From the IMG/VR virus record IMGVR_UViG_3300018414_000182, positions 1-36,627 of that record: 36,627 nt of DNA. One strand, written 5' to 3'. Made by a program: the position numbers and the translations under genes. The stretch comes from a virus. Taxonomy: Duplodnaviria > Caudoviricetes. The notes under the pieces were generated by a model. It saw nothing but the letters and a program-made list of their open reading frames with translations, ran no database searches and had not been told where the DNA came from. Position 1 is the first letter of the stretch, and every line of letters starts with the position of its first letter. This document shows positions 2,709 to 33,852 of the stretch, piece after piece.

Positions 2709-2729
2709 GGTCGGTGTTTGTAAATGGAT

Positions 2730-2759
2730 AAGAAAACGCCCCGACTGTGCGGGGCGTTT
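2730..2759 (-). terminator. Intrinsic terminator between fibre chaperone and endolysin
   Basis: Minus strand AAACGCCCCG-cacagt-CGGGGCGTTTTCTT. Confidence 0.7.
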
Positions 2760-7244: not shown

Positions 7245-7259
7245 TGGTTCTTGTCTTCT

Positions 7260-8887: not shown

Positions 8888-9275
8888 AGGTCACCTGCCA
8901 ACTGTGAATGGGGTTGAGGTCCAGGCGTTCGCCGTCGGCCAGGATCAGCACCGTGCGCAGGTTCAGGCGCTGGGCGTCGAGGCGCTCGGTGATGATCTCC
9001 ACGGCGTTGCAGTGGCCATCGTCGATCAACCATTGCAGGGCCTCGCGGGCATAGAATTCGGCGTCGAGCTGGGTCTGCCGGGTCAACTTGACCCGGCGCA
9101 GCAGCCACAGGCGCGAGCCGATGCGGTCGTCGGCCACGCTGGGAAAACTGTCGCCCCACCAGCCGTAGCGCTGGTCGTCGTCCAGCGCGTCGTCATCGGC
9201 GGCGCGACGCCAGGTGAACAGGCTGATTTCCACGGCCCGGGTCAGGGCGTTCTTCAGGTCATAGGTGGCGAACAT
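8877..9275 (-). CDS. Mu gp46-like baseplate protein
   Basis: AVEISLFTWRRA, GWWGD, IGSRLWLLRR, YAREALQWL motifs. Confidence 0.9.
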   Translation of the reverse strand: MFATYDLKNALTRAVEISLFTWRRAADDDALDDDQRYGWWGDSFPSVADDRIGSRLWLLRRVKLTRQTQLDAEFYAREALQWLIDDGHCNAVEIITERLDAQRLNLRTVLILADGERLDLNPIHSWQVTYAV

Positions 9276-9277
9276 GC

Positions 9278-9784
9278 TTAACCTCCCACGGGTACGCCGG
9301 TCTGGCCAGGACCGGGTTGCACGCCGCTGTGGACGTGGTTGATCTGGCTGATGCCGGCGGCGACCTGATCGCCCTGGGAGACGATCTTGCCGCTCATGCT
9401 CAGGGTCGGACTGTCGATGTTGACGCCGCTGCTGGCGCGGATATTCAAGGTCGCGGTGTCGATGTCGATGACCCGCCCGCGCTTGAAGTGGATCTTGTCG
9501 CCCTCGTCGGTGTAGATCGCCACTTCACCGGCGGCCAGGGCCTGCAAGCGGTAGCGCCGGTCGGCCACCACCAGCACCACCGCGTGGGAACGGTCGCCCC
9601 CCAGAAAGGTGGCGATGCCCTCGGCGCCGGCCAGGGGATTGCTGGTGAAACCGTAAGGCTCGAAATGCTCCATGTCGTCGTTGACCTCGCCGGCGGTAAG
9701 GCGCATTTGCAGCGATTGCAGTTTGTTGGCCGAGTTGGCGAGCACCACGGTGCCCCGCGCCAACAGGCGTGTCAGTAAGCTCAT
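9278..9784 (-). CDS. Baseplate spike, Mu gp45-like
   Basis: EHFEPYGFTS, GEVAIY, C-terminal HVH metal-binding tip. Confidence 0.9.
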   Translation of the reverse strand: MSLLTRLLARGTVVLANSANKLQSLQMRLTAGEVNDDMEHFEPYGFTSNPLAGAEGIATFLGGDRSHAVVLVVADRRYRLQALAAGEVAIYTDEGDKIHFKRGRVIDIDTATLNIRASSGVNIDSPTLSMSGKIVSQGDQVAAGISQINHVHSGVQPGPGQTGVPVGG

Positions 9785-9801
9785 GCTGAGTTCCTTGGAG
9801 G

Positions 9802-9877
9802 GTAGGAGCCGGCTTGCCGGCGAACAGGAATTGCGCGGCTTCGTGCCGGATGCCTTCGCCGGCCAGCCGGCGCCTGC
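9802..9877. repeat. REP doublet (REPIN-like, GTAG family)
   Basis: GTAGGAGCCGGCTTGCCGGCGAA ... TTCGCCGGCCAGCCGGCGCCTGC, inverted arms between hub and spike genes. Confidence 0.75.
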
Positions 9878-9892
9878 GGATGGGCGCGGGTT

Positions 9893-10933
9893 TCAGGTGT
9901 TGCCGGGTGTCGGGTTGGCGTCGAAGGTCTGCGGCGGCGCCACCTGCAAGGTGGTGATCGAGCCCTGCTCGGACAGCGACCAGGTGACCTTGGAGATCAG
10001 CATGTCCTGGTCGAAACCCAGCACCGGATCGATCACTCGCACCAGGGTGTTGTGCTTCCACAGGTCGCCATTGCTCTGGCGCCAGCCCTGCACCTGATAG
10101 GTGGTGGTCAGTGCCTTGCCGGTGCGGGTGCCGCACTCCCAGTCAGCGCGCTGCTGAGCCAGTTCGGCGCTCAGTTGCGCGGCTTCGTTGATCACGGTCA
10201 CGCGCTTGCGGGACACCCTGGCGTCGTTGGCCTGACCCGACACCTCGCTGACCGCCGCCCCGCTGCTCTGGTCGCTGCCCTTGTGCTGGCCGATCACCCG
10301 GTACTCGGAAAACACCGCGGAAAAATCCATCGCTGCATTGGCCGAGAGAATGTTCTTGCCCAGCTCCAGGGCATCGCTGGCGCGCCCGCCGCTACCCGGT
10401 GCCGCCAGCAGCAGGTAACCGTCGGCGTCATCGGTGGAGAACACCCGGTACAGCGTCAGCAAACGGTCGATGGAGGCGAACACCGTCTCCCCCGGCACGA
10501 TGCTGTGGGTGTGCAACTTGCCGGTCGGGGCGATCTCGCTGCGCACCCCGACCCCGTAGGATGCAGCCAGGGCGCGAACGATGCTCAGCACGTCCTGCTG
10601 GCGCCATTGGCTCGGCCGGTTGATGGCCGCGCAATCCACCAGATCCTGGGTCAGCGAACCGCCCTGGATGCTCAGGCTGATCTGCTGGCCGTCGTAACTG
10701 ATCGGCGCCTTGTAGACATGCCCGGTGAGCACCAGGTCGCAACCGATGCGCACCTGACAGCGAGCGCCCGGACGGATCCGCACCTGCGAGTCCTGCCCCG
10801 GCCATTGCCAGGTGATGTTGAGGCTGAAGGTGCGGAACTGCCGCTCCAGATCCGCACTGATCTCCACGCTTTTCCAGCCGCTGTAATCCAGCCCGTCCAC
10901 CGTCAGGGTGACGATATTTGCCAGTTCGTCCAT
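9893..10933 (-). CDS. Baseplate hub, Mu gp44/gpP-like
   Basis: VTLTVDG..YSGWKSVEI, TQDLVDCAA, PGETVF, FSEYRVIGQ, QGWRQSNGDLW motifs. Confidence 0.9.
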   Translation of the reverse strand: MDELANIVTLTVDGLDYSGWKSVEISADLERQFRTFSLNITWQWPGQDSQVRIRPGARCQVRIGCDLVLTGHVYKAPISYDGQQISLSIQGGSLTQDLVDCAAINRPSQWRQQDVLSIVRALAASYGVGVRSEIAPTGKLHTHSIVPGETVFASIDRLLTLYRVFSTDDADGYLLLAAPGSGGRASDALELGKNILSANAAMDFSAVFSEYRVIGQHKGSDQSSGAAVSEVSGQANDARVSRKRVTVINEAAQLSAELAQQRADWECGTRTGKALTTTYQVQGWRQSNGDLWKHNTLVRVIDPVLGFDQDMLISKVTWSLSEQGSITTLQVAPPQTFDANPTPGNT

Positions 10934-10936
10934 GGG

Positions 10937-12181
10937 TCACTCCCGAGCGATTTGCAGGTCGGCCGGCGGCAGGAAGCCCGGATGGGCCACCCGGTTGCGC
11001 TGCACCACTTCGCCGACCCGCGTCGCATCGGCGAACCGCTGATAGGCCAGCACCAGCGCCGGCATACTGCTTTTGGGGCTGAGGCTGACCAGTCGCACCC
11101 CCGAAGAGGCCACGGCATTGAGGTGCCCCTGCAGTTGCTGGCGCAGGCTGTTGAGCGCCTGGTAATGCATCGGATCGGCCTTGAGCGCGGCCTGCCAGAT
11201 CAGCTCATTGAGCTGGTCACGCAGGGCCAGCACATCGTCGGCCACCGGCACCTCCAGGCGCTGCACCGGCCGGCTGGCCTGCTGTGCCAGGGGCGGCGTG
11301 TTCTTGAGCTTCACCACGGGCGTGGCCACCGGCAACGCCGACACCAGCCGGGCGATCTGCACCAGCAGCGCATCCTGCACCAGGTTGGCCACCGCCTCGG
11401 CCGCCGCCGTGGTGTCCTTGCCGGTGGTCAGCTTCGGCGCATCGATGCGCCGGGCCGCCTCCACCTGCTGGGAAATATCGGCGAGCATCTGCCGATAGCC
11501 GGTACGGGCAAAATCCTTGAGCCCGCGTACATCCTCCAGCAACCCCTTGAACTCCGTGCTCAACTCCTTGGGTATTTCCTTGACCGCCTTGACCAGGGTG
11601 TTGAGGTCGCCATAGAACTCGATCAACGGCTTGAACTCGTGCTCGATGACCGCATACACCTCTGTCAGCCCCTTGCGCAGCGCATCCACGCCGATCCGCG
11701 CCTGCTTGATCAGGTTGGTGGCGAACTCGAAGCGCAGCACCGCCGAGCCCAGCAAGGTATCGCTGGCCACCAGCACCTGCTGCTGGGTGTTGACCACCGC
11801 CGAGGGAAAGCGCAGCGGCTGGTCCGGATAGAACTTCAGGCTGAAGGTCACCAGGCCGCCATCCTGGCGGCTCTGGGTCATCTCGCATTCGCCGACCTTG
11901 ACCTGCATCCGCCCGAGCCAAGGGTGCACCAGCTCGCCGCTGCCCTCCTCCAGGGCCTTGAGCAGCCTGTCGCGCTGCTCCAGGCAATCGGCACCGACGA
12001 TAAAGGCCGTCAGGTCATGGATCTTCGCCTGCTGGCCAAGGCCCTCGAAAAACGGCTGGTCGCGCTGTGGGTACTCGTGCAACTGGCCTTTCTGGCCCAC
12101 CGGGGTTTTCGCCTGATCGACCCAGAACGGCACGCCGCGAAAGGATGCGGGCAACAAACGATCACGCCAGTTATCCGCCAT
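10937..12181 (-). CDS. Mu gp43/N-like 'DNA circulation' protein (tube initiator)
   Basis: WRDRLLPASFRGVPF, HEYPQRD, GELVHPWLG, C-terminal RNRVAHPGF. Confidence 0.92.
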   Translation of the reverse strand: MADNWRDRLLPASFRGVPFWVDQAKTPVGQKGQLHEYPQRDQPFFEGLGQQAKIHDLTAFIVGADCLEQRDRLLKALEEGSGELVHPWLGRMQVKVGECEMTQSRQDGGLVTFSLKFYPDQPLRFPSAVVNTQQQVLVASDTLLGSAVLRFEFATNLIKQARIGVDALRKGLTEVYAVIEHEFKPLIEFYGDLNTLVKAVKEIPKELSTEFKGLLEDVRGLKDFARTGYRQMLADISQQVEAARRIDAPKLTTGKDTTAAAEAVANLVQDALLVQIARLVSALPVATPVVKLKNTPPLAQQASRPVQRLEVPVADDVLALRDQLNELIWQAALKADPMHYQALNSLRQQLQGHLNAVASSGVRLVSLSPKSSMPALVLAYQRFADATRVGEVVQRNRVAHPGFLPPADLQIARE

Positions 12182-13892
12182 GGGAACCTCCTAGGGAAAG
12201 TGAGCGATAGCCCAGGGTTGAAGCCACGTTCAGGCCGGGTTGATTGGTCTTGGCCTGTTCGGCACGCAGGCCTGCCGGGGCGTTTTCGAAACGCACGGTC
12301 AATCCGCCTTCGAGTTGCGTGCGGTTGTTCGCGGCGTTCTGCTGGATCAGGGCACTGGAATTCTGGGTCAGCGAGCTGCCCTGGGTTGCGGCAAAGGGTG
12401 ATGCCAGCCCGCCTTTACCCTCGGCGTTGATTTGCCTTTGCGCCTCGGTAAAGCCTTCGACCTTGCCGGTGACCGTGGCAATCAACCCTCCGAAACCGCC
12501 TTCGAACAGCTCCTTGATCGGCACCATCAACTCTTGAAGCTTGCTCCACAGCTCGGAAAACCAATCGGCGATAGGGGCCCAATTGGTCATGATCAGCTCC
12601 ATCGGCGACCAGTCGAACAGGACCTCAATGGCCTTCCTGATCGAGTCGATACCCGGTTGCAACTCGGCCCAGATCGAACTGAAAAAGCCCGTAACTGCGC
12701 CCCAGTTGTTGTAAAGAATCACCAGCGGAGAGAAGTCGAATAGCGTTTGCAGGACCTTCTTGATCGCATCGATACCCGGTTGCAGCGCCGCCCAGATCGA
12801 GCTGAAGAAGCTGCTGACAGCCCCCCAGTTGTTGTAAAGCAACACGGAAGGAGAAAAGTCGAACAGCGTCTGGAACACCGTTTTGATCGCCTGGATGCCC
12901 GTTTGCAACGCTCCCCAGATCGACGCGAAGAAGCCGGTGACCGCGCCCCAGCTCTTGGTGATCATGTCCATCGGCACCCAGTCGAACAGGCCTTTTAGAA
13001 AGGCCATTGCCGGTACCGTCAAAGCCTTGAGCAACGCCCAGATCGACGCAAAAAGCCCCGTCAACCCAGCCCAGTTATCGATAATCAGCCCCAGAGGCGA
13101 CCAGGAGAACACCTCTTTGAAGAAGTCGACGACCGACGCCGTCATCGCCTTGATGCTGTCCCAGAGCCCGGCAAAGAACGCCGTGATCGCCCCCCAGTTG
13201 CCGATCAGCATGCCCAAGGGCGTCCAGCTGAACAGGGTTTTCAGTCCTTCCAGCGCCTGCGCCGCAAGATTCTTTACGCCCTCCCAGAGGCTGACGAAAA
13301 AGGCCGAGATCGGCGTCCAGTTGGCAATGATCACCCCGGCCGCCAGGGCGATACCCATGGCAATCAGCATCAGCGGGTTGGCCTTGGCCACCGTGCCCAT
13401 CAGGTCGAGCACCTGGGTCGCACCGGTCACGGCGGTTTGCATCGCCGAGAAGGCAATGGCGCCCATCGCCAGCCCCTCAACCAGCTTGGGATTGTCGTCG
13501 AGCAATGTCCCCACGCTGTTGAGCATGGGCTCCAGACCGACCACCAGCGCCCCCACCGCCGGCGCCAGCGCGGCATCAATGGCCGAGGACACCTTGGCCA
13601 TGGACTGACTGAATACATTCATGCCTTTGGCCGCATCGGCCGATGCGCTGGAGTCGCCGACTTCGGCCAGCTTGCCCTTGAACGCGTCGCAGGCCTTGAT
13701 CCCATCGAGAAACGGGGTAATCAGGCTACCGCCCCTGAACAGACCACTGATATCCAGCTTGCCCAGCCCGGTCTGCTCAAGGTTTTTCTTGAAAGAGTCG
13801 ACCTTGCCTTGAAGGGCGACGAGTTTGGGTGACAGTTGGTCGATGCAGGTCAACAGCACCGACTTCTTCTCTACGGTTTGTGTGTCTGCCAT
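12171..13892 (-). CDS. Tape measure protein of Mu-like tailocin (~573 aa)
   Basis: Position after the chaperone; hydrophobic segment plus W/F-periodic repeats. Confidence 0.88.
   Translation of the reverse strand: MADTQTVEKKSVLLTCIDQLSPKLVALQGKVDSFKKNLEQTGLGKLDISGLFRGGSLITPFLDGIKACDAFKGKLAEVGDSSASADAAKGMNVFSQSMAKVSSAIDAALAPAVGALVVGLEPMLNSVGTLLDDNPKLVEGLAMGAIAFSAMQTAVTGATQVLDLMGTVAKANPLMLIAMGIALAAGVIIANWTPISAFFVSLWEGVKNLAAQALEGLKTLFSWTPLGMLIGNWGAITAFFAGLWDSIKAMTASVVDFFKEVFSWSPLGLIIDNWAGLTGLFASIWALLKALTVPAMAFLKGLFDWVPMDMITKSWGAVTGFFASIWGALQTGIQAIKTVFQTLFDFSPSVLLYNNWGAVSSFFSSIWAALQPGIDAIKKVLQTLFDFSPLVILYNNWGAVTGFFSSIWAELQPGIDSIRKAIEVLFDWSPMELIMTNWAPIADWFSELWSKLQELMVPIKELFEGGFGGLIATVTGKVEGFTEAQRQINAEGKGGLASPFAATQGSSLTQNSSALIQQNAANNRTQLEGGLTVRFENAPAGLRAEQAKTNQPGLNVASTLGYRSLSLGGSHGG
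12540..13235 (-). repeat. Six tandem 41-aa (123-bp) repeats in tape measure
   Basis: F(S/D)(W/F)xP...(N/S)W...F...W units; DNA motif gtcgaa recurs at 12612, 12735, 12858 and 12981 (123-bp period). Confidence 0.9.
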
Positions 13893-14062
13893 CACTGCAC
13901 CTGCTGCATCGCATTGATCCGTTGCGCGTGCTCCAGGGATTCCCGGAGCACATCCAGTGGCCTGGCCATCATCTGTTCGGGGTCGACCTTCCAGAACCAG
14001 GCCAGGTCATAGGCGACAGCGATCAGGTCGGCGATGGCTGCGATGCCGCACTCATGAAAAAA
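13892..14062 (-). CDS. Frameshift extension (GT/E'-like) of the Mu-like tail assembly chaperone
   Basis: -1 frame from T TTT TTC reads ..HECGIAAIADLIAVAYDLAWFWKVDPEQMMARPLDVLRESLEHAQRINAMQQVQ*; its TGA overlaps the TMP ATG. Confidence 0.75.
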   Translation of the reverse strand, partial: FFHECGIAAIADLIAVAYDLAWFWKVDPEQMMARPLDVLRESLEHAQRINAMQQVQ

Positions 14063-14319
14063 CTCGCCACCGCCCAGCTCAAGGCGTTGAGGTCCACTAG
14101 GTCCAGCTGGTTCACCGAGGACGGTGGAATGCCGGCGCAGACCGCGATGTATTTGGCCGCAACATCCATGTCGAGGCTGACTTCTTCGCTCTTGTCGATC
14201 TTGTACGGCAGCGCCTTGATCGCCCGCACTTCCTGCACCGTCGGGCGGCGCAGGCTGAGTTCGGCCAGCGGCTCGCCGTGGGCCTCGATCGGCACTTGCA
14301 GCTTCACCGTGTTGCTCAT
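14023..14319 (-). CDS. Tail assembly chaperone (FluMu gp41-like)
   Basis: LQVPIEAHGE..ELSLRRPT, GIPPSSVNQLDLVD; lies between tube and TMP. Confidence 0.88.
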   Translation of the reverse strand: MSNTVKLQVPIEAHGEPLAELSLRRPTVQEVRAIKALPYKIDKSEEVSLDMDVAAKYIAVCAGIPPSSVNQLDLVDLNALSWAVASFFMSAASQPSPT

Positions 14320-14663
14320 TGCCAGGTCCCCTTCTGCCCTTCGAAGTTCAGTTCGATGCTGGCGTCGTCACCCTTGGCAATAGGCTCGTCCACCAGGTAG
14401 GCGCCGGCCAGCACGTAGACCTTGCCGTTGGCGAACTCACAAGTGACGGTCATGTCGGAACCGGCAATCAGCTGCTTGAGCGGAAAGTCCGGGGTGTGCA
14501 GCGCGGTGACTTTGAACGACGGCGTCAGGTCGGTTTCCTTGTAGAAACCCGGAACCACGGTTTCCCGCTTGACGGCCATCAGCGGTGCTTCGCAGCCGCC
14601 GCTGATGGTCAGTTGAGCGCCGTCCACTTTGACGTAGCAGGTGCCCGCAATCAGTTGACCCAT
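14316..14663 (-). CDS. Tail tube protein (Mu gpM-like)
   Basis: IAGTCYVKVDG, TVTCEFANGKVYVL; follows the sheath. Confidence 0.88.
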   Translation of the reverse strand: MGQLIAGTCYVKVDGAQLTISGGCEAPLMAVKRETVVPGFYKETDLTPSFKVTALHTPDFPLKQLIAGSDMTVTCEFANGKVYVLAGAYLVDEPIAKGDDASIELNFEGQKGTWQ

Positions 14664-14675
14664 GATGTTTCTCCC

Positions 14676-14702
14676 AAAAAATAAGCCCGCTCAAGGCGGG
14701 CT
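14676..14702 (-). terminator. Intrinsic terminator-like hairpin between sheath and tube
   Basis: Minus strand AGCCCGC-cttga-GCGGGCT-TATTTTTT. Confidence 0.65.
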
Positions 14703-14729
14703 GAAAAAGCGCAGTGATGCAGGTCCGGC

Positions 14730-16226
14730 TCAGGCCGCGGCGTCGTACTGCAGGCGGAATTGGTTGAGCAACGCGAACACCCGCAGGCCGTTGATGTAGT
14801 CCGGCGGGAACAGCACGTTGACCCGGCTCGGGTCCTGCACGTCGCGCTCGACGATCAGGTGCTCGGCGAACAGCTCGGCGTTCTCCACATGGCCTTCCAG
14901 CTCCAGCTTGGCGTACTGGGCGATCAGCTCACCGCGAATGGTGCTCGGGGTGACGATCGGCTGGCCGGCGCCGAAGCGGGTGCCGTCAGAGGCCAGCTTG
15001 TGGCGCCCGTACTTGCTGGTGATCACGCTTTGCAGGCGACGCACGATGAACGCCGACTGGTGCATGGTTTCGCTGTCCAGGTAGGAGTTGTCGGCCTGAC
15101 CGTAGGCGTTCTTCTGGTAGGTGGTGATCGCCCGCTGAATGCGCATGTAGCCGCCTTCGTAGTAGGCGGTGGCGATGCCGTAGCTGAGCAGCGACTGGCG
15201 CTCGGTCAGGGTAAAGCGCTCGCTGGCCGGCGCCGGATCGATACCCGGCAGGCTACCGCTCTGGGTCGGACGGCTGGCATCGGCGGAGATGAACACCGAG
15301 GTCCGCGCCGCCAGCGCTGCCGCCTGGACCCACACCGGCTGAGGCACACCGGTTTCCAGGGCCTGGATGGTGATGTGCTGGTCGTTGCGCGCCTGGCCGG
15401 CCGCCACCAGGGTGCCGACGGTGCCGCGCTTGGCACTGTAGACATGGCCGAACAGCTGCTTGGCCCAGGACCAGCGGCCGGTGTTGTCGTCCATCACCGC
15501 TTGCCAGGCATTGAGGCTGGCGGTGTCGGTCCAGGGCATGCAGATGAACTCGAACGGCTCGTCGCCCAGGGCCGCCAGGGCCGCGACCTGATCCGGCACG
15601 CCAGTGCCGCCGGCCATCTTGCCCAGCACCAGGGTCAGGCCGGCCGGGGTTTCTTCGCCATTGCTCTTGCCCAGGCGATTGAGTTGCAGGCTGATGTCGT
15701 TGCCGCTGTCGCCGGTCCACTTGGCGCTCAGGGTCACCGTGCCGTCGACCGCAGCCGCAGTTACCGGCAGGTCCACCGCCGCGTTGATCTTCAGCGCCAG
15801 GGCGCTGGCGGCCTGGGCGGCGCTGGCGCCACTGACGATCGAGGCCTGCACCCGTACCCCGCCGACGTACAGATTGAGCAGGCCGGCGGCGCTGGCGCTA
15901 CCGGTGATTTTCAGCTCGGCCTTGGCGACGCTGCCTTCGGTGCTGTGCAGCGGCAGGCACCAGATCTCCCCCACCGGGTCGGTCTTGCGCCAGGTTTCAT
16001 ACATCGAAGCGAGCATCGAACCTTGCCCGCCGATGCTCTTGGCCAGGGCCACGCTGGACACCAGCACCAGCTTGCCGAGGTCGTCGCCGGTCTGGTTGTC
16101 ATTGACTTGGGCGACGATCAGACGGCGCATGGCCGAAGACGCGCTATTGGCCGCCGAGTTGTCCATCTCGGCGTAGAACAGCGGAACACGGATGTCCGCC
16201 GGGATATTGCTGAAACCGATCGCCAT
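14730..16226 (-). CDS. Tail sheath protein (Mu gpL-like), 498 aa
   Basis: IGFSNIPADIRVPLFYAEMDNS, AITTYQKNAYG.ADNSYLD, PPDYINGLRVFA motifs. Confidence 0.95.
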   Translation of the reverse strand: MAIGFSNIPADIRVPLFYAEMDNSAANSASSAMRRLIVAQVNDNQTGDDLGKLVLVSSVALAKSIGGQGSMLASMYETWRKTDPVGEIWCLPLHSTEGSVAKAELKITGSASAAGLLNLYVGGVRVQASIVSGASAAQAASALALKINAAVDLPVTAAAVDGTVTLSAKWTGDSGNDISLQLNRLGKSNGEETPAGLTLVLGKMAGGTGVPDQVAALAALGDEPFEFICMPWTDTASLNAWQAVMDDNTGRWSWAKQLFGHVYSAKRGTVGTLVAAGQARNDQHITIQALETGVPQPVWVQAAALAARTSVFISADASRPTQSGSLPGIDPAPASERFTLTERQSLLSYGIATAYYEGGYMRIQRAITTYQKNAYGQADNSYLDSETMHQSAFIVRRLQSVITSKYGRHKLASDGTRFGAGQPIVTPSTIRGELIAQYAKLELEGHVENAELFAEHLIVERDVQDPSRVNVLFPPDYINGLRVFALLNQFRLQYDAAA

Positions 16227-16408
16227 TATTTGGCTCCTTGAGATTTCGCCGCTTTCACGGCTTTGCTAGTGATATCGCCATCGGCCAGACGCCGGCGCCA
16301 CCAGGCGTTGTCCGGCACTTCACGGCCGGAGGCGGGCAGCAGATCGCCTGCTTCCGGGTCCGGTACGGCGCGGCCAGCGACCGGCAGCACGGTGATGCGT
16401 TTGCTCAT
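16226..16408 (-). CDS. DUF2635 / Mu gp38-like small protein
   Basis: GRAVPDP...LLP..GREVP...WWRRRLADGD pattern; precedes the sheath. Confidence 0.88.
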   Translation of the reverse strand: MSKRITVLPVAGRAVPDPEAGDLLPASGREVPDNAWWRRRLADGDITSKAVKAAKSQGAK

Positions 16409-16989
16409 TGCTTCAGCTCTCCTGAAAAAGTCAGCTCCAGGCGCCCATCGGGGCCCGGTTTCTTCAAATTGGGATCCGCCGGATCGATGGCATCGACCCG
16501 CACCGTGACCCCGGTCAAGGACGGCAAGCCGTCGAGTTCACGCTCATGCCAGGTTTCCGCCGGCTGGCTGGGCAAGTTGCGCCCCAGCTGGAACTCGGCG
16601 AAGAAGCGCAGGCGGTAGAGCAAGCGGGTGGCGTCGAGCGACACCAGCTCGCCGCCGTCGTATTGGATCGGGTTGTACTCGGCTCCGGGCTTGAAACCGA
16701 CCAGGGCGCGCCATAGTTCGGCACGCAGGTCGTGGAGTTGGTCTAGGGCTTGTTGTGGGTTGCTGGCATCGAGGAGCAGGACGACTTCGAAGCGGTCGCG
16801 GATGGTCTGACGGTGAACGTTCTGGGCAGTGTTGCCGGAAGCCAAGTCGTTGATCGGAGCCCAGTACGCAGCCGGTAGGGGTTGGCTGGTGTTACCGCCC
16901 AGAGTATCGAGGTTGATGCCCGCCAGAATGCGCCCGCTGAGACGGGGACACTGGCTTTGCAGCTGGTTGATAACAGCGCTGAGTTTCAT
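16405..16989 (-). CDS. Tail terminator/completion protein (Mu gp37-like position), 194 aa
   Basis: ATG at 16989 (MKLSAVINQL); LRAELWRALVGFKP..YNPIQYDGG; first gene of the second module. Confidence 0.75.
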   Translation of the reverse strand: MKLSAVINQLQSQCPRLSGRILAGINLDTLGGNTSQPLPAAYWAPINDLASGNTAQNVHRQTIRDRFEVVLLLDASNPQQALDQLHDLRAELWRALVGFKPGAEYNPIQYDGGELVSLDATRLLYRLRFFAEFQLGRNLPSQPAETWHERELDGLPSLTGVTVRVDAIDPADPNLKKPGPDGRLELTFSGELKQ

Positions 16990-17075
16990 CGAGTGGCTCC
17001 AGGACCGGGACTGATCCAGGTCCGTTGCGGGCTGCCACGATCGAGCATCAGGGCCTCTCGGGAAGCAGTTGCCAT
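16986..17075 (-). CDS. Possible 29-aa leader ORF
   Basis: GGAGA RBS, ATG at 17075, MATASREALMLDRGSPQRTWISPGPGATR*, ATGA overlap with the next gene. Confidence 0.35.
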   Translation of the reverse strand: MATASREALMLDRGSPQRTWISPGPGATR

Positions 17076-17092
17076 AGGTTTCTCCAAGGCAC

Positions 17093-17113
17093 AAAAAACC
17101 CGCCGCAGCGGGT
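17093..17113 (-). terminator. Intrinsic terminator between cargo genes and second tailocin
   Basis: Minus strand ACCCGC-tgcg-GCGGGT-TTTTT. Confidence 0.75.
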
Positions 17114-26073: not shown

Positions 26074-26500
26074 ATTGGGTTTGTTCGGCGATCCAGGAGG
26101 GGGCTACCGGGCGGTGCTCGGCTTGTGGGAAGTCCGGGGATTGGGGCCAGTCGCGTAGGGATTGCATGTACACAAGCAGCTCCTTGAACTGCTCACTGGT
26201 CAGCGTCGTGGCTGTCGCGATTTCGAGCTGGTCACGGTGCCGCTCGCGTAGCCACATGAAAGATGACAGCTCTGCATCGCGCCACTGGCGTTCCTGTGCT
26301 GCTGGATCAAGAAGCACCTCGGGGGCATCAATCAGATAGGGCAAGCCCAGTTCATCATGAACCCGAATCTTGCCTGGACTTGGGTTTCCAATTACCGAGA
26401 GATAACGCTCATCAGATATCTCTACTGCGTCGTCGGGTATCGACGTATGCAACCCCATCAGGTAAGTGGTCTTTGTGCTCTGGCTGTAAAAACGCTGCAT
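26072..26500 (-). CDS. Tail fibre assembly chaperone (P2-like tailocin)
   Basis: FYS.ST..., IPDDAVEIS, ERQWRD, YMQSLRDWPQSPDFP motifs. Confidence 0.88.
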   Translation of the reverse strand: MQRFYSQSTKTTYLMGLHTSIPDDAVEISDERYLSVIGNPSPGKIRVHDELGLPYLIDAPEVLLDPAAQERQWRDAELSSFMWLRERHRDQLEIATATTLTSEQFKELLVYMQSLRDWPQSPDFPQAEHRPVAPSWIAEQTQ

Positions 26501-26503
26501 ATT

Positions 26504-28951
26504 TCACCATCCAATCGCGATGTAAGAGATGTCATATCCGGCCCCGCCAACTGCCGAGTAAAAGATCGCGCCGTCACGCGAGGGAGACCCGGTTGAAACA
26601 CCGCCGCTTGGCGCCGCTGACCCGCCGAAAGATGCAGAGCAGCGACCAAATGCATTGGGGAAAGCCATGGGCCATGTCACTGGAACTGCCGCTGCACTCG
26701 GCTTCAGAACATACCCCCACTGAACGACTAGCCCTCCCAGCCAGGAGGGGAAAGCTACATATCCGTTTGCCGCCAGGCTCATTGCAAAACCGAGGCGTAG
26801 TTTTTTAGGCGTTGCGATCACCGCGTCGCTTGCACTGTCTAGCATCTGCGCATCTGTAGCGACCTTGGCAGTCCCCTGTTTTATCTCAGTCGCCTGAACA
26901 GCCAACGGCGCCAGTGCGGCGATGTCAATGTTTCCCTGGTTGACGGGTGCGTTCCAAGCTTTGATGCACCACATCACCGCTAGGTTGCGCGGGCGGGTTT
27001 CCGAACCAACCCGAGGTACACCATTCACGCCGTCACTAACGAAAGCGCCGGTTAAGTTACGTGGTCTTGTGCTCGGAGCGACGGAACCAAGCGGCGGGCC
27101 GAACGCTAGATCACCTGCGCCGTTATCATCATTCCCCCAGGCTGCGCCATTCTTAGTCCGCATCGTTTCCATACGAAACCCCTGCAGGCTATCGAGCTGA
27201 ATAGAGCCAATTGCGCGACCAGGATCTAATCCGCGCCCATGGTCCCAACCCCGCAAGAACTCCCCCCGCGACTCAGGCAACCGGAAGTTTCCAGCGCCCT
27301 CATCGCCCTTGTTAAAGGTGGTCCCCAGATACGCCGCAAGATCGGGATAAGCGGCAATGCTTTGCACGCTACCGTTGAGTTCAAGGTAGCCCGCTGGAAC
27401 CTCAGCCTTGGGAAATGGAATGATGGCGCCGACAGGGTGCGCAGACTTGAGTGCCGCCAGTTCCTTTACCAGCGCTGCTATGTCGATATTTCCCTGATTG
27501 ACTGATGCGTTCCACGCCTTGATGCACCACATGACAGCAATGTTGTGCGGGCGAGTTTCGTACGCAATCCTAGGAGTTCCATGAACAGTATCCGTGACAG
27601 GATTTCCAGTTGATGCCGCTGGAATCATCGATGGACCCGGCGATGGCGCAGAACTGCCACCAATTGGGACGCTTTCCATAATCGAAGTCCCAGACAGCGG
27701 CGAATGTCGATGTCCCTGCATAGCATCGGTTTGCGTGGTACCGCAGCCACGATCAGGATCTATACCACGCCCATGATCCCACCCCCGCAAAAACTCACCC
27801 CGGGACTCGGGCAAGCGGAAGTTTCCCGCCCCCTCATCACCCTTGTTGAAGGTGGTCCCCAGATACGCCGCCAGATCCGGATAAGCCGCAACGCTCTGCA
27901 CACTGCCATCAATCTCCAGAAACCCCGGCGGCACGCTGGCTCTGGGAAACGCCACCATCGAGCCCACCGGCAACGATGACGACTGGGCCACAATCGACTC
28001 GATCTCGGCCTTGGTGTAGGTGTCGGTAATGCCATGCCCGGCCAGGGTGCTCGGGTTGGTCCCGGCAATCACCCGGCCGTACTTGTCGACCGTGACGTTG
28101 GCATAGGAGCCCGCACTGATACCGGTTCGCCCGATGGCCATCTCGAAGGCCAGCGGCGTGGTGCCGAGGACAATCGGCCCGTCGGTGACCAACTGCCAGA
28201 CGCTGTCGCCGTTGACCGTGCCCTTCTCGATGCTGACGAACAGCCCCGGGGTGACCTCCAGGCTGGTGTCCGCATCCTGGGCTCGGGTCCAGACGCCCGT
28301 CGACGACACCACATACAAGCCGTTGTCCTTGGCCTGGGCCTGGTTTTTCACCAGTACCCGGGCATCGGCCGGCAGCAGCACGCCGTCGATGGTCTGAATC
28401 CCGCTCAAGGCGATGTTGGCGGTGGTGGCTACCAGCGCCGAGTGCTTGAAGTCAAGCTTGGCCAGGGCCTCGATCACCGCATTGTCGACATACTCGCGGG
28501 TGGCCAGGACCACCGCCGGATCGATCTTCAACACGATCTGCGCGGTGTTGGCGACGATGAAGTTCATGCGGATGACTTGGGTCTTGCCGGTGCCCTGGGC
28601 CAGCAGGGGCTTGAAGCTCGGGGCGCAGTTGGCCACTGCCACCAGGTCGCCGTCGGCGTCGAACAGGCCGATCTCACGGATCCAGCGCCCGCCGACATCA
28701 GGCGGGATCACTTGCTCGGTGATGATGATGTTGGGGTTGGCCGGGTCGGTGCGCACCTGGTTGACCGGGGCGCGGCGCCATTCGTTGATCAGCTTGGTCT
28801 GAGCCCGGTTCGGGATGGGGTCGGTGCCGTTGGCATCGCCGACCGCCATTTCCTTGAAGGTCCAGGGCGTGCCCAGGGCCGTGGCGTTGGCCTGTTTCGC
28901 CTCGCCCACCGCCGTGAGCATGGCGAAGAACTGACTGTTGGAATCAATCAT
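26504..28951 (-). CDS. Tail fibre A (P2 gpH-like), 815 aa, two tail-collar domains
   Basis: DUF3751-type N-terminus (LTAVGEAK..GDANG..WIREIGLFD), two collar modules, C-terminal GLVVQWG..WPMAFPN..YIAIGW domain. Confidence 0.93.
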   Translation of the reverse strand: MIDSNSQFFAMLTAVGEAKQANATALGTPWTFKEMAVGDANGTDPIPNRAQTKLINEWRRAPVNQVRTDPANPNIIITEQVIPPDVGGRWIREIGLFDADGDLVAVANCAPSFKPLLAQGTGKTQVIRMNFIVANTAQIVLKIDPAVVLATREYVDNAVIEALAKLDFKHSALVATTANIALSGIQTIDGVLLPADARVLVKNQAQAKDNGLYVVSSTGVWTRAQDADTSLEVTPGLFVSIEKGTVNGDSVWQLVTDGPIVLGTTPLAFEMAIGRTGISAGSYANVTVDKYGRVIAGTNPSTLAGHGITDTYTKAEIESIVAQSSSLPVGSMVAFPRASVPPGFLEIDGSVQSVAAYPDLAAYLGTTFNKGDEGAGNFRLPESRGEFLRGWDHGRGIDPDRGCGTTQTDAMQGHRHSPLSGTSIMESVPIGGSSAPSPGPSMIPAASTGNPVTDTVHGTPRIAYETRPHNIAVMWCIKAWNASVNQGNIDIAALVKELAALKSAHPVGAIIPFPKAEVPAGYLELNGSVQSIAAYPDLAAYLGTTFNKGDEGAGNFRLPESRGEFLRGWDHGRGLDPGRAIGSIQLDSLQGFRMETMRTKNGAAWGNDDNGAGDLAFGPPLGSVAPSTRPRNLTGAFVSDGVNGVPRVGSETRPRNLAVMWCIKAWNAPVNQGNIDIAALAPLAVQATEIKQGTAKVATDAQMLDSASDAVIATPKKLRLGFAMSLAANGYVAFPSWLGGLVVQWGYVLKPSAAAVPVTWPMAFPNAFGRCSASFGGSAAPSGGVSTGSPSRDGAIFYSAVGGAGYDISYIAIGW

Positions 28952-29553
28952 GAGTACACATCCAGGGTGTCTGTTTCATCAATACACATGACCTGGCCAT
29001 AACGACCGGTCACTTCAATGTCGCGGGGTGTCGGGGGATAAACGTCGAGCACTTCGCCTTGATCCACGTAGGCGCCGTAACCAATCACTCCGGAGGTTTC
29101 CAGGCTGATGGCCAGGCCGGTCATGTGCCGGCTGACCGGCCGGGCGTCGTCGATCAGGCGGGTCAGCTCCTGGTACATCTGTTCGGTGATACCGGTGTCC
29201 AGAACGCCGACCTTCAGGGCAAAGGTGGCCGGTTCACCTTCTGGAACCGTCTGCCACCATTCGACCACTTCGATCAGGTAGCCCAGCGGTTCCACCACTC
29301 GCCGCAGTGCACCGAGGGTGCCTTTGCGGGCGTGGATGAAGTAGGAGGCGCGAATGGCGTTGCGCTTGACCGTCTCGCTCCAGCCCGGGTCCCAGCGATC
29401 CACCGACCAGGCCCAGGCCAGTTGCGGCAGCAGGTGCACCGGGCAGGTCGCCGGGTCGTACAGGGTGCGCAGCATTATGGCGCTGTCACCGCTACCGGCC
29501 GCCGCCAAGGCGCGCTCCAGCGGGGTGCTGTTGATCGGCAGTAGGCTGCTCAT
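28948..29553 (-). CDS. P2 gpI-like baseplate protein, 201 aa
   Basis: SLLPINSTPLE, CPVHLLPQLAWAWSVDRW, KGTLGALRR, ARPVSRH. Confidence 0.93.
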   Translation of the reverse strand: MSSLLPINSTPLERALAAAGSGDSAIMLRTLYDPATCPVHLLPQLAWAWSVDRWDPGWSETVKRNAIRASYFIHARKGTLGALRRVVEPLGYLIEVVEWWQTVPEGEPATFALKVGVLDTGITEQMYQELTRLIDDARPVSRHMTGLAISLETSGVIGYGAYVDQGEVLDVYPPTPRDIEVTGRYGQVMCIDETDTLDVYS

Positions 29554-29554
29554 C

Positions 29555-30436
29555 TCAGCCCCCCAACTTGACGCTGTAGCCGATGCAGTACGCCGCCTGG
29601 GCTTTGCTCGGGGTGATGTCCTGCCAATCGGCAAGGTCGACCCGGGCCACGCCGGCCACATGCAACTGTGCATCGATGGCCGAACGGGCCACCTCGATGC
29701 CCAGGCGCCGACGTGGGTTGATCCAGGCCGCCAGCCTGCGCTCGGCCTCGGCCAGGGCCGCATCACTTTCCGGCCCTGGCCCCTTCATGTGCAGCACGGC
29801 GTCGATGCGATAGGGCAACACTTGCGCACTCTGCACCGTGACCCGATCCCCCAGGGGCCGCACGTCCTCATCGTTGAGGGCCGCAGCGACTGTCGCCAGC
29901 AGCTCGGGAGCGGCCGTGCCGTTGCCTTCCAGGCTCAGCACCGTGACCGTCACCCGGGCCGGCGCCGGGCTTTCGGCCTCGGCATCGGCCACCAGGGCCG
30001 AAGCATTGCGGGCATGCAGGATGTAGCTGTTACGCGGCCCGGCGGTGGTCAGCCCTTCGTAGGCCAACTGGATGCGCTCGCGCAGGGCGTCGTCCGACTC
30101 CCTGATTTCCTCCAGCGCTGGCACCGCCAACGGATCGCCGGCCTGGATCACCAGGCGCTGCAGTTTGACGTTGGCCGCCAGGTGATCCAGGTCGGTGCCC
30201 TGGGCATGGGCCAGCAACAATGCCTTGGCGGCGTCGTTGACCCGGGCCCGCAGCAGCATGTCAGCGTAAGCCGAGACTTCCAGCAGTTTGCTCACCGGGT
30301 CGCTTTCCAGGTTGGCCGTCCAGTTCTCGCCCATGTGCCGGCGAAAGGTGGCCAGCTTGCCTTGGTACAAGGCCTCGAAGTCCAGGGCTTCAAGCACCTG
30401 GGGGGCCGGCAGCGCCGACAGGTCCAACGTACTCAT
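29555..30436 (-). CDS. P2 gpJ-like baseplate protein
   Basis: LDLSALPAP, ESDP, ESDDALRER, TAGPRNSY, VRPLGDRV. Confidence 0.93.
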   Translation of the reverse strand: MSTLDLSALPAPQVLEALDFEALYQGKLATFRRHMGENWTANLESDPVSKLLEVSAYADMLLRARVNDAAKALLLAHAQGTDLDHLAANVKLQRLVIQAGDPLAVPALEEIRESDDALRERIQLAYEGLTTAGPRNSYILHARNASALVADAEAESPAPARVTVTVLSLEGNGTAAPELLATVAAALNDEDVRPLGDRVTVQSAQVLPYRIDAVLHMKGPGPESDAALAEAERRLAAWINPRRRLGIEVARSAIDAQLHVAGVARVDLADWQDITPSKAQAAYCIGYSVKLGG

Positions 30437-30759
30437 GCCGTCACCTCCAAAACCGTGCTGTTACCCAGGTACTGGCCGGTCAGTTGAAAGCTGATCTGAC
30501 CTCCGACCACCGCGACCACGCTGACCCGTTCCAGCTTCAGCCGCGGCTCCCAGCGCAACAGCGCCCGGGCCACTTCGGCCTGTACTGCGCTTTTCCAGCC
30601 GCCGGTCACCGGCAGGTCGACATAGCGGCGCAGGTTGCTGCCGTATTCGGGGCGCATCCGCCGGCTGCCCAGGGGCGTGGTCAGGATGTCCTCGATGGAC
30701 TGCCGCACATGCTCGATGCCGGACAGCGACAGGCCGGTACGGCGATCCATTCCGATCAT
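30433..30759 (-). CDS. P2 gpW/gp25-like sheath initiator, 108 aa
   Basis: GMDRRTG, HVRQSIEDILTTPLGSRRMRPEYGS, RWEPR. Confidence 0.93.
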   Translation of the reverse strand: MIGMDRRTGLSLSGIEHVRQSIEDILTTPLGSRRMRPEYGSNLRRYVDLPVTGGWKSAVQAEVARALLRWEPRLKLERVSVVAVVGGQISFQLTGQYLGNSTVLEVTA

Positions 30760-30763
30760 GGCC

Positions 30764-30967
30764 TTACTCCTGTGCCTGCAGATCCGGGTGGCTGGCGAGG
30801 TAGTCCAGGGCAACGCGGTCGCCGGCCTTGGCCGACACCTGTCCCTGGACCACCGACAATTGGCGGCCGTCCGGCAGGATCAGATGACGCGAGGTGTAAA
30901 GACGGTCGCGAAACACCACGGCGCCGGTGCCCGCTGGGCGACCGGGGGTTTTCTTGGGGGTGGCCAT
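30764..30967 (-). CDS. Small hypothetical phage protein, 67 aa
   Basis: GGAGA RBS, ATG at 30967 (MATPKKTPG..FRDRLYTSRHLILPDGR); stop abuts the gpW RBS. Confidence 0.65.
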   Translation of the reverse strand: MATPKKTPGRPAGTGAVVFRDRLYTSRHLILPDGRQLSVVQGQVSAKAGDRVALDYLASHPDLQAQE

Positions 30968-30983
30968 TGCATTCTCCGGGTAG

Positions 30984-31006
30984 AAAAAAACCGCTCTGGG
31001 CGGGTT
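30984..31006 (-). terminator. Intrinsic terminator after spike gene
   Basis: Minus strand CCGC-ccaga-GCGG-TTTTTTT. Confidence 0.6.
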
Positions 31007-31056
31007 GCTTGGGTGATAGGTAGCAAGTGGGTCGTGAGGGCGATGAGGGCCAAGGG

Positions 31057-31647
31057 TCACTGCGGCGGGGCCGTTGCCCCGGGGCCTGGCATCACCCCAA
31101 GGTGGGTATGGGTCGAGCCGACGTTGACCCCGTTGTGCGTCAAGCTGCCACCGTTGATCTGCACGTCGCCATTCAAGGTGATCGCACCGGTCAGGGTGAT
31201 GCTGGCGGCGTTGCCGGTAATGCTGCTGTCGGTGACCTGCGCCGAGCTGGCGCCAACCTGAATGCTCACCGTGCCGCTGGGCAGGCTGATGCTGTAGCTC
31301 TTGGCCTGCCAGTCATAGACCAGCGAGCCGCCATCCTCGAAGCGCCAGACTTCGACGTGGTCGCGGTTGTCCGGCTGGGGACCGGCGTTGCCATACAGGC
31401 CGGGAACGAAAGTGCCCTGGGCCGGCTCGCCGCTGGGGCTGATCAACACGCCCTGCTCCCCCAGGCTCGGCGCCCGCCAGTGACGGGCCTTGCCGGCGGC
31501 CTGGCTGTGCCAGCGCACCCAGGCGCTGGTCCAGCCGGCGCCATCGGACACCCGCACCAGGCCGGCCGCCAGATCCACGCCGACCACGCAGCAAGGCAGG
31601 ATCAGGCCGGCAATCATGCGGTCGTGGGTTGCAGACACGTAACTCAC
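31057..31647 (-). CDS. P2 gpV-like baseplate spike, 196 aa
   Basis: GTG at 31647; WRAPSLGEQ..SPSGE, RFEDG...YD, C-terminal HTH(LGV) metal tip. Confidence 0.92.
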   Translation of the reverse strand: MSYVSATHDRMIAGLILPCCVVGVDLAAGLVRVSDGAGWTSAWVRWHSQAAGKARHWRAPSLGEQGVLISPSGEPAQGTFVPGLYGNAGPQPDNRDHVEVWRFEDGGSLVYDWQAKSYSISLPSGTVSIQVGASSAQVTDSSITGNAASITLTGAITLNGDVQINGGSLTHNGVNVGSTHTHLGVMPGPGATAPPQ

Positions 31648-32165
31648 GCCATGTGCTCCGGCGACTGGTAGTCGCCCTCGTGACCGGGCCCGGTATCGGG
31701 GCTGAAGCCCAGCACCAGCGTGCCCGGCGGTTGATCGGCCCAGGGCCATTGTTCCTGCCCCAGGTAGATAAGCTGCTGCCACTGCACGATCCACTCGGCG
31801 CGATAAGTCGGATCGGCCACCGTACCGGCAGGCTTGGCCCACACCGCCGTTGCCCCCTCGACAAAGTCCAGGTTCCACTGCTGGCAACGCAACAGCTCAA
31901 GCAGCTGCGCCGCGAGAATGGCCGCCTGCATAGGCGCCTGCGCCAGTTCGGGGTCGACCCGTATCCGCGCCTCGAAGGTGGCCCGCATGCAACTGCGGCC
32001 ATCACCGGGGTCGGCGGCCTGATCCAGGCCGGTCACCACGAAGTAGAGCGCCGGTTCAGTGACGCCTTCGAGCATCTTGGGGAAGGCCTCAACCCTGTGC
32101 AGTTGCGGCATCGCCTGCTTGATCGTGGACGTGATGGCGTCTTTTAGCTGGGTCAGTTCGTTCAT
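31644..32165 (-). CDS. Tail terminator/collar protein (PA0615-like position), 173 aa
   Basis: ATG at 32165; DPGDGR, WIVQWQQLIYLG; between holin and spike as in R2 pyocin. Confidence 0.75.
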   Translation of the reverse strand: MNELTQLKDAITSTIKQAMPQLHRVEAFPKMLEGVTEPALYFVVTGLDQAADPGDGRSCMRATFEARIRVDPELAQAPMQAAILAAQLLELLRCQQWNLDFVEGATAVWAKPAGTVADPTYRAEWIVQWQQLIYLGQEQWPWADQPPGTLVLGFSPDTGPGHEGDYQSPEHMA

Positions 32166-32245: not shown

Positions 32246-32596
32246 TCAGCGCTGATCCGGGTTCGAGTCCCGTGAGGGCGGTTCGCATACCCCGATGCGC
32301 TTGGCCGCCCAGCGCTCATAGAGGCCGATGGCGACGTCGGCGCCGGCCATGGCGGTCAGGCAACCGAAGGCGCAGGCGGTCCAGATCGAGACGCCGGCGG
32401 CATACAGCAGCATGATTGCCGAGACCCCGCAGACCACGCAGGCTCCAGAGCGCAGCGCCAGGCGCCGCAACAGCGACCAGCCACGGGCGCCCTCCTTGTC
32501 GGCGCGCCACATTTCGCCGGAAACGCCACCGACCAGCGCCAGGACGATGACCAGCCAGATCGGCATGTCCAGCAACGCTTGCTGCTCGTTTGTCAT
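32246..32596 (-). CDS. Holin
   Basis: 116 aa with 2-3 hydrophobic helices; MTNEQQAL..MPIWLVI is typical of Pseudomonas tailocin holins; first gene of the operon; GGAG RBS. Confidence 0.88.
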   Translation of the reverse strand: MTNEQQALLDMPIWLVIVLALVGGVSGEMWRADKEGARGWSLLRRLALRSGACVVCGVSAIMLLYAAGVSIWTACAFGCLTAMAGADVAIGLYERWAAKRIGVCEPPSRDSNPDQR

Positions 32597-32700: not shown

Positions 32701-32741
32701 GCATTCCAAAAAGCCCGGTCGCCCGGGCTTTTCAGTAATGC
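32701..32741 (-). terminator. Leader terminator upstream of holin
   Basis: GCATT-AC-TGAAAAGCCCGG-gcga-CCGGGCTTTTTGG-AATGC: GC stem, U tract and an extended outer stem. Confidence 0.75.
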
Positions 32742-32949
32742 AAACCTTGGTCTTTCGGCACTACTGGTGCGGTACGGACCCATTCAAATTGTTCCTCCGA
32801 CCGCGACCCTGTCCGCCGGATAACTGCTTCTGGTGCTTTACGCTGCACACCCGGGTCAGTTGCCAACCCTCTGAACCGTCGAGGCCGGTTCATCGCTGCC
32901 TTTGCTTTGCCACTAAAGAGCGTCGTTGCAGCCGTTGTTGAACGGCTTG
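32701..32949 (-). ncRNA. Putative structured 5' leader RNA of the tailocin operon
   Basis: Lies between the predicted TSS (~32949) and the terminator; five consecutive hairpins plus boxA-like CGCTCTTTA (32914-32922); no credible ORF. Confidence 0.5.
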
Positions 32950-32955: not shown

Positions 32956-32984
32956 ATAATATGCATCAATGCATACACAGTCAA
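32956..32984 (-). promoter_or_regulatory. sigma70 promoter of tailocin operon
   Basis: TTGACT (32984-32979), 17 bp spacer, TATTAT (32961-32956). Confidence 0.8.
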
Positions 32985-33047
32985 TGCGCAAATGCATTTA
33001 TTTATGCGCAATAATTGCACGAATGCATGGAGGCCGCATAAATGCAG
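32961..33047. promoter_or_regulatory. Array of 14-bp palindromic operators (WTGCR-N4-TGCAW), probable PrtR sites
   Basis: ATGCATCAATGCAT 32961-74, ATGCGCAAATGCAT 32984-97, TTGCACGAATGCAT 33015-28, weaker CCGCATAAATGCAG 33034-47. Confidence 0.7.
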
Positions 33048-33114: not shown

Positions 33115-33852
33115 TTAGCGGGCGTACATGCCCCACCAGAAGACGTGACCGAGGATGCTGATCTGCTCCTCCTGGATCTCCTGGAAGCTGTAGTCCTCGT
33201 CCGGGTGCTCATCGCGGTTGAAGCTGCGCAGGCGAATCCCGGTGGGCAGGCGATACAGCTGCTTTACTCGCAGCTGGCCGTTGTGGTTGATGGCGTAGAG
33301 GTCGCCATCGACGATGTCGCCGATCGCGCATTTGCCGGCATTGACCCCGACCGTGGCCCCATCGCGCAGCACCGGCAACATGCTGTTGCCCCGCACCGTG
33401 ACGCACTTGGCCTGATCGAACTGCACGCCGTTGTGCCGCAGGCTGCGCTTGCCGAAGCGCAGGCTGGCGCGCTCGCTTTCCTCGATGACGAATCTTCCTG
33501 ATCCAGCAGCCAATTCAACCTCACGCAGAAAGGGAACCGACACCTCGTCGTCATCGACGGGAGTGTCGTCGTCCCACAGGCTTATGTCCTTGAGTTCCGA
33601 ATGAATCTCGTCACGGGGGGCCGCAGTCCGGCCAGGCGCGATATCCACGCGCCCGCGCAACTGGTCGGTGCTCACCTGGAAGTATTCGGCGATCCGCGAG
33701 ATGTGCTTATCCGAGGGATCGACGATCTTCCCGCTGAGAATCCGCGAGAGGGTGGATTGAGGCACACCGGTACGGCGATGAAGCTCCGTGGGGGAGATTC
33801 CATCACGATCCAGCAGCTCTCTTAAGACGGTAGAAACATTGCGTATTTGCAT
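33115..33852 (-). CDS. prtR: PrtR-like / CI-like repressor (XRE HTH + S24 peptidase), ~245 aa
   Basis: HTH (TELHRRTGVPQSTLSRIL), ELAAGSG Ala-Gly cleavage site, GNSM serine and RVK lysine; alternative start at 33861. Confidence 0.9.
   Translation of the reverse strand: MQIRNVSTVLRELLDRDGISPTELHRRTGVPQSTLSRILSGKIVDPSDKHISRIAEYFQVSTDQLRGRVDIAPGRTAAPRDEIHSELKDISLWDDDTPVDDDEVSVPFLREVELAAGSGRFVIEESERASLRFGKRSLRHNGVQFDQAKCVTVRGNSMLPVLRDGATVGVNAGKCAIGDIVDGDLYAINHNGQLRVKQLYRLPTGIRLRSFNRDEHPDEDYSFQEIQEEQISILGHVFWWGMYAR

Follow-up and report, generated by a model that had tools for sequence, protein, structure and literature searches.

How is a tailocin operon of 31 kb transcribed to its end when PrtN is not encoded beside it? 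prtR-type tailocin loci without prtN are already in print, and the text of PMC4684702 treats the full expression of fluorescens-group tailocins without PrtN as an open question; a passage of PMC12066065 mentions "other important mechanisms of regulation". The same question is raised by the stretch of DNA analysed here in its whole length of 36,627 nucleotides (the window), in which a structured leader RNA lies between the repressor-controlled promoter and the first gene of the operon. A literature search covering few subscription journals found no published description of this RNA. By analogy with the put RNA of phage HK022, we favor, with a probability of about 0.55, the idea that the leader is a protein-free antiterminator of new fold that acts in cis and likely replaces PrtN.

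A tailocin operon with one repressor-controlled promoter

The tailocin locus lies between mutS and cinA and is of the P. protegens group, the window PrtR being 98-99% identical to those of P. danubii and relatives. The minus-strand order is prtR, a 519-nt gap, the holin gene, a P2-like tail cluster, cargo, a Mu-like tail cluster, the endolysin gene and cinA. The features around the leader are these:

33115..33852, minus strand: prtR/ptbA repressor gene (HTH and S24 peptidase domains, from Pfam)
about 33098-33071, minus strand: prtR's own terminator (prtR RNA-seq reads end at 33099)
32988..33001, minus strand: PrtR operator-like sequence, the sole AAATGCATTT in the window
32956..32984, minus strand: sigma70-type promoter, -35 and -10 (TTGACT-17-TATTAT; further ATGCAT boxes overlap)
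32246..32596, minus strand: holin gene, gene 1 of the operon (Pfam PF16085)
884..32162, minus strand: remaining operon, with P2-like tails, GH18 and fimbrial cargo, Mu-like tails and endolysin

The cargo between both tail clusters (window 17187-19020) consists, by Pfam, of a GH18 glycosyl hydrolase and a fimbrial-type protein. The near-consensus sigma70 promoter that the sequence-only reading had placed about 350 nt above the holin gene is indeed present: the match at 32984-32956 is the sole promoter-like site in 31500-34500 (shuffle mean 0.5), and the holin ATG at 32596 lies about 352 nt downstream of the predicted transcription start. In 68 counted tailocin promoters the spacer (window 32980-32965 region) is CTGTATATGCATACAT, one letter off an SOS-box-like palindrome; set against the SOS-box consensus, the palindrome is degenerate in the window promoter and its close relatives.

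The operator-like sequence agrees at 12 of 14 letters with the operator found under a ChIP-seq peak in PMC12066065. As described there for P. protegens CHA0, PrtR1 binds an operator 391 bp above hol and PrtR repression is relieved by DNA damage; the searched text of that paper contains neither "leader" nor "terminat". On this precedent, and with the same operator in the window, PrtR would repress the single promoter until DNA damage relieves it. The same source reports a CHA0 reporter that stays about 1000-fold inducible by mitomycin without prtR1. This PrtR1-independent induction leaves room for a second damage-responsive input, and it counts against the antiterminator model, which leaves it unexplained.

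Along its 31 kb the operon has one operator and at least four sense-strand intergenic terminator-like hairpins, ending at about 26050, 17098, 14684 and 2736; a hairpin at 2647, within the endolysin frame, was left out of this count. No minus-strand promoter match was found in 1-32700, in a scan that promoters of other types would escape. That the operon combines such hairpins with the lack of any internal promoter match is one reason for favoring antitermination. Against it, the terminator totals given by the scanner are not above those of shuffled sequences (16 vs 13.0 and 10 vs 10.6).

The leader and its folded core

From its 5' end, the leader is laid out as follows:

32930..32947, minus strand: hairpin 1 (MFE fold; shape conserved, sequence variable)
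32914..32922, minus strand: boxA, CGCTCTTTA (GCTCTTTA core), sharing eight letters with the motif before host 16S rRNA
32796..32901, minus strand: conserved core RNA of about 105 nt, four stems and two pseudoknots (from covariation)
32901-898 with 32885-882, minus strand: pseudoknot PK1
32892-886 with 32878-872, minus strand: stem P2
32869-866 with 32856-853, minus strand: stem P3
32861-857 with 32826-822, minus strand: pseudoknot PK2, joining the P3 loop to the strand after P4
32851-847 with 32836-832, minus strand: stem P4, with loop GCAGCGUAAA
32820-32796, minus strand: stem P5, with two bulged G
32749..32780, minus strand: P6, an interrupted stem with a 4-bp hairpin cap and a CAGUA/CAGUC loop at 32770-32758
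32701..32741, minus strand: P7, a long stem with one bulged A (32736) and a U5 run, a weak terminator or RNase III-type site
32745..32938, minus strand: discrete RNA of about 200 nt in related strains (read ends, not mapped termini)

Hairpin 1, the boxA and the five further hairpins of the sequence-only reading all lie where it put them, and every one of the hairpins is in the MFE fold (32930-47, 32872-92, 32853-69, 32832-51, 32749-80 and 32701-41); the set nevertheless missed the stem at 32820-32796 and both pseudoknots. The leader fold has a z of -2.94, one of 200 shuffles being as stable.

The stems are conserved and covary. Across 66 sequences the 33 proposed pairs are 99.5% paired, 13 of them with two-sided changes, compared with 23-49% for slid controls. 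In a diverse choice of 35 distinct sequences, aligned by the model, 98.2% are paired and 21 pairs show two-sided change; this alignment is biased towards the modelled stems, though not towards the pseudoknots, which lay outside the model. As the sequences are related, these counts do not equal independent events. Four of the five PK2 pairs covary (variants AACUG/CAGUU, CACUA/UAGUG and CUCCA/UGGAG, with CUCG/CGAG in F116). PK1 is invariant in the sets collected with a pattern that fixed it; in three divergent matches GGGU/ACCC and GGGC/GCCC replace AGGC/GCCU. The unpaired loops of the core are invariant, and the P6 cap has 4/4 pairs in all 70 loci where its loop was found (72 examined). By covariation, then, the family is real, and it has no counterpart in Rfam 15: neither the window nor the phage copies matched a family at gathering threshold, the E-value matches being generic terminator models. 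The leader core is a new structured RNA family, real and well supported; its function we infer.

There is a single GCTCTTTA motif in the 36.6-kb window; its chance occurrence within 250 nt has a probability of about 0.002. Of the 80 loci ranked best among 476 by PrtR, 76 have it exactly, amid variable flanking letters, as expected of a boxA core under selection. A wider set of 144 tailocin and 63 phage/plasmid sequences has the exact motif in 136 and 28, respectively, and a single mismatch in a further 4 and 13; the motif is absent (at least two mismatches) in 4 of the tailocin sequences (P. putida-type leaders) and 22 of the phage/plasmid ones. A script set the labels behind these counts and those for P7 below, with a few errors (for example L194 for boxA; L110 and L144 for P7). 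Such absences do not suit the central place first given to the boxA; judged from these sequences, it is optional and not the heart of the element. In many phage copies a hairpin lies between boxA and core, and tailocin hairpin 1 sits 5' of the boxA.

In 31 of 72 tailocin leaders (L019, L058 and others) an insert of about 100 nt lies between hairpin 1 and boxA. It holds a mean of 5.9 ANGGA motifs, resembling Rsm/Csr sites (0 in the other 41 leaders), has no Rfam match, is missing from the window leader and survives in L045 and L079, both without core and tail genes. A leader peptide was rejected: the frame starting at the core ATG runs for 53 codons in the window, but of 144 tailocin sequences 65 have a stop in its first 10 codons.

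The leader transcript and the end hairpin

Three raw-read RNA-seq runs of related strains, from two studies, were searched, about 45% of each being read. They contain a minus-strand RNA reaching from about 32938 to 32745/46 at depths of about 3350, 126 and 106, compared with about 65, 29 and 9 at the holin start, so that the leader is 4, 12 or about 50 times deeper than the holin gene. No sense reads lie between 32965 and 33035 and none come from prtR. Sense-strand RNA thus begins upstream of P7, as the first reading supposed and not below the end hairpin. Together with the covariation, these reads show that the leader is transcribed and folds as drawn. Cross-mapping from prophage copies was dismissed, only 4-5 loose reads being of that type. 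Metatranscriptome contig X6 covers prtR only. A self-cleaving ribozyme is not supported: the coverage steps match read length, and no internal ends pile up in 32745-32938.

The leader reads end at 32745/46, before the P7 stem; 3-22 reads span P7, within which coverage dips. Since prtR mRNA reads likewise stop at the foot of their terminator, these ends fit termination and cleavage alike. P7, cut or partly terminating, would release the stable RNA of about 200 nt that is seen in the reads. A discrete, abundant and apparently intact RNA of this size might itself be the product, freed on induction to act in trans, for example as a sponge or defence RNA, and the ANGGA array of one subgroup (31 of 72 loci) would suit such a role. 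Yet the core always heads a long operon and goes missing together with the genes below it even where prtR and holin stay, and the window has no ANGGA insert; we regard a trans-acting RNA as the least probable of the readings considered.

P7 had been called a strong terminator. The hairpin is there (18 pairs and one bulge in the window; -12.6 kcal/mol, followed by UUUUUGGAA), but its strength is not borne out: the tract is only U5, then GG, the terminator scanner made no call, and U-less homologues exist. A descriptor comprising a 4-bp stem, the bulged A, a C-G pair, three loose pairs and a 6-bp stem fits 196 of 225 sequences (157 of 167 from tailocins and 39 of 58 from phages or plasmids) in a varying stem register, with one match in the window vs 0.1 in shuffles. 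P7 is thus a long duplex conserved by pairing, not by sequence. U5 is kept in 152 of the 157 tailocin copies, whereas none of the 39 phage/plasmid copies has U4 or more, and the tailocin variants with a shorter U-run (L018, L024, L229 and L260) change both strands. On these grounds the ancestral feature of P7 is the duplex, presumably RNase III-like, to which tailocins may have added termination.

Two features of these data speak against cis antitermination. Retention of U5 is what one expects of a terminator, and, were antitermination constitutive and fully efficient, a leader 4-50 times deeper than the holin gene would be unexpected, unless much greater stability of the RNA accounts for it. 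Both would suit a conditional attenuator or riboswitch-like sensor, in which P7 stops most transcripts until the core binds a DNA-damage signal; so would the compact pseudoknotted fold with its invariant loops, and the roughly 3-log mitomycin induction left in CHA0 without prtR1 (PMC12066065). P7, however, has a pairing probability of about 0.98, and the best alternative duplexes reach -16.5 and -15.1 vs -25.6 kcal/mol for the native one. A switchable antiterminator stem was accordingly rejected, there being no competitive alternative to P7. The lack of a U-run in the phage/plasmid copies also weighs against a sensor, and the SOS-box-like sequence of the 68 promoters could account for the extra induction, though it is degenerate in the window. 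We consider such a sensor rather improbable.

Alternatively, the leader could be a module for mRNA processing or stability, protecting or folding the 5' end, with P7 as an RNase III site that frees gene 1 and the polymerase unaffected. In favor of this, P7 is long and conserved as a duplex, its stems covary while the bulge stays fixed, it precedes the first gene, and coverage dips within it; second P7 copies are also consistent with such a role. One P7-type stem recurs before the holin gene, after a cargo gene, in 4 of 21 cargo-bearing loci (L025, L031, L039 and L048); another lies further down the left operon of PseuP_224, before another gene (L204 10318). But a processing role leaves the invariant core, the optional boxA and the absence from PrtN-type loci unexplained, and a cut at P7 would detach the core from the mRNA it was meant to protect; we think it very unlikely. 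The "Com" gene annotated in the DVM-2008 GenBank record (L001 2025-2333) begins inside the leader, at P6/P7; the annotation thus probably sets the start codon too far upstream.

Carriers, losses and relation to known systems

The core is present in 76 of 80 species-level prtR-type tailocin loci, selected by PrtR alone as the best 80 of 476. Its covariance model matches 90 of 151 genomes in a genus sample (eight being weak, under 40 bits, or uncredited second matches), 10 of 151 in a Pseudomonadaceae sample and 3 of 151 at order level, one of these at 20 bits and none credible outside Pseudomonas. The want of a match in most other sampled Pseudomonadaceae counts against the antiterminator. Matches of 20-23 bits (L243, L247-L253) stand in unrelated contexts and were excluded from alignment A4. 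A record titled Leclercia tamurae (L049) is a typical P. brassicacearum-group locus, likely mislabelled.

The core also heads the early-left operon of Pseudomonas temperate phages (PseuP_224, Orimi01, Medea1 and F116), directly downstream of the promoter adjoining the repressor or cro gene, and about 760 stored viral stretches, tailocins among them, have its 5' pattern. It occurs on 27 P. syringae-group plasmids; in the three that were opened it lies about 110 nt before virB1 (two) or beside the relaxase region (one). In phage Orimi01 (L003/L205) pL, core and cro are kept with no annotated cI in between. The element would derive from a temperate-phage early-left leader, inherited together with repressor and promoter, as homology and position suggest. 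That it is the first structured element after a repressor-controlled promoter in long operons of three unrelated kinds, tailocin, phage early-left and plasmid virB, is a further reason for favoring an antiterminator.

The four core-less loci among the best 80 (L045, L050, L052 and L079) all lack tail genes, their holin gene leading straight into cinA. This arrangement is found in 4 of 4 core-less vs 1 of 76 core-bearing loci (L012), four more of the latter leading from holin to lysin (Fisher 3e-6 or 8e-5). The four are scattered on the prtR tree, a single clade being rejected (p-AU 5e-45), and the model matched two damaged core copies, L246 and L257, which likewise stand in short loci. That core-less loci have also lost their tail genes favors the antiterminator, but loss of the core with the operon suits any cis function; a cis-acting role in antitermination fits the distribution data. 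Between mutS and cinA, L045, L050, L052, L079, L012 and L257 retain the holin gene and a prtR of about 90% identity even where every tail and lysin gene is gone, which suggests that the pair has a separate role.

The absence of the core from PrtN-type loci again favors the antiterminator. Among seven PrtN-type pyocin loci, chosen from PF11112 matches by shared score, core (best E 0.29, filters off) and boxA were each found in none; being one lineage of different ancestry, the seven make one comparison, not seven. The claim that the window encodes no PrtN-, N-, Q- or AlpA-like protein holds for PrtN (PF11112), AlpA (PF05930) and Q (PF06530), none of whose profiles matched there, and only weakly for N, as PF11438 matched nowhere at all while PF11112 did match in other genomes. 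PF11112 is absent from three of five core-bearing genomes. Within 3 kb downstream, the commonest gene family is shared by 19 of 46-47 phage/plasmid loci; no family there is annotated as an antiterminator, and 0 of 7 tested families match the window. No N-type protein was found in these 3-kb regions or the window, N proteins being short and divergent. The lack of a common protein partner among the carriers favors an RNA that acts alone.

It might still be a nut-like platform, inactive alone, that loads a protein antiterminator, most likely a host factor. The boxA adjoins a hairpin as in nut and rrn leaders, the unpaired loops of the core are invariant, and the induction seen in CHA0 without PrtR1 suggests another factor. 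Yet neither the window nor any gene common to phage and plasmid carriers supplies such a protein, and the fold of four stems and two pseudoknots would exceed what a boxB needs. Moreover, the CHA0 reporter, with the whole 516-bp region, is induced, unaffected, after deletion of the tail cluster or of two prophages (PMC12066065), which argues against a phage-encoded partner for passing P7. A platform of this kind seems unlikely.

For a protein-free antiterminator, HK022 put is the model. According to PMC9378689, put is about 70 nt long, has two stem-loops and a short triplex, lies at pL and pR, binds the beta' zinc domain, and acts at 10 kb or more, also without an RNA tether; a cut at P7 is thus compatible with put-like action. 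The leader resembles put in being a structured RNA just below an early-left promoter, with bulged residues and no recognisable N. It differs in its core of about 105 nt with four stems and two pseudoknots, in its presence on tailocins and plasmids, in its frequent boxA and in copy number: unlike putL and putR, the core has a single match in each of the whole genomes of PseuP_224 and Orimi01, in the left operon, where a divergent second copy could escape. This single copy in two phages also counts against antitermination. As shape and copy number are not those of put, the leader may work like put but is not filed in its family; it is set apart by put's description. A blastn search with the leader against the phage collection returned no HK022-type record. 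As with put RNA, the core would bind the elongating polymerase, which, so modified, would resist the terminator-like hairpins of the 31-kb operon.

In the nutL/N leader of lambda, too, boxA and a hairpin are neighbors at the start of pL, and a long stem with an RNase III site follows before the first gene. In contrast, no N gene was found with our leader, the boxA is optional, a large core stands instead of a simple boxB, and the order of hairpin and boxA is reversed in tailocins. With the rrn leader boxA, which binds a NusB/NusE complex and needs no phage protein, the leader shares an identical 8-letter core (six copies in a close relative's genome, the one checked lying about 160 nt before 16S rRNA). 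The letters after it differ, however, and it is dispensable in many leader homologues. boxA-dependent complexes are described chiefly as acting against Rho (PMC12360218), and they can also promote termination (PMC12360218, PMC4807359). The rrn boxA thus acts mainly against Rho, whereas the hairpins of the tailocin operon are of intrinsic type; here the boxA would recruit NusB/NusE as an optional helper against Rho. As under PrtN/AlpA control in P. aeruginosa, repressor cleavage after DNA damage would start a lethal operon. But PrtN and AlpA, the latter a protein antiterminator (PMC12796719), are proteins acting at a DNA site; PrtN-type loci lack the leader RNA, and leader-bearing loci lack PrtN.

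A bolder version of the antiterminator reading, which we hold only tentatively, makes the leader a second class of antiterminator RNA that needs no protein, unrelated in structure to the first: a double-pseudoknot module that Pseudomonas phages, conjugative plasmids and tailocins have each set in front of long operons, standing in for PrtN in the fluorescens and putida groups, with P7 activity gated by DNA damage. Such gating would explain the repressor-independent 1000-fold induction in CHA0.

The 105-nt element has defined base pairs that can be disrupted and repaired one by one, and a reporter is already available in a species used as a biocontrol model. Should the element prove to antiterminate, it would be a new polymerase-modifying RNA fold that tailocins have in common with phages and conjugative plasmids; it would also make a compact tool for long-operon expression in Pseudomonas.
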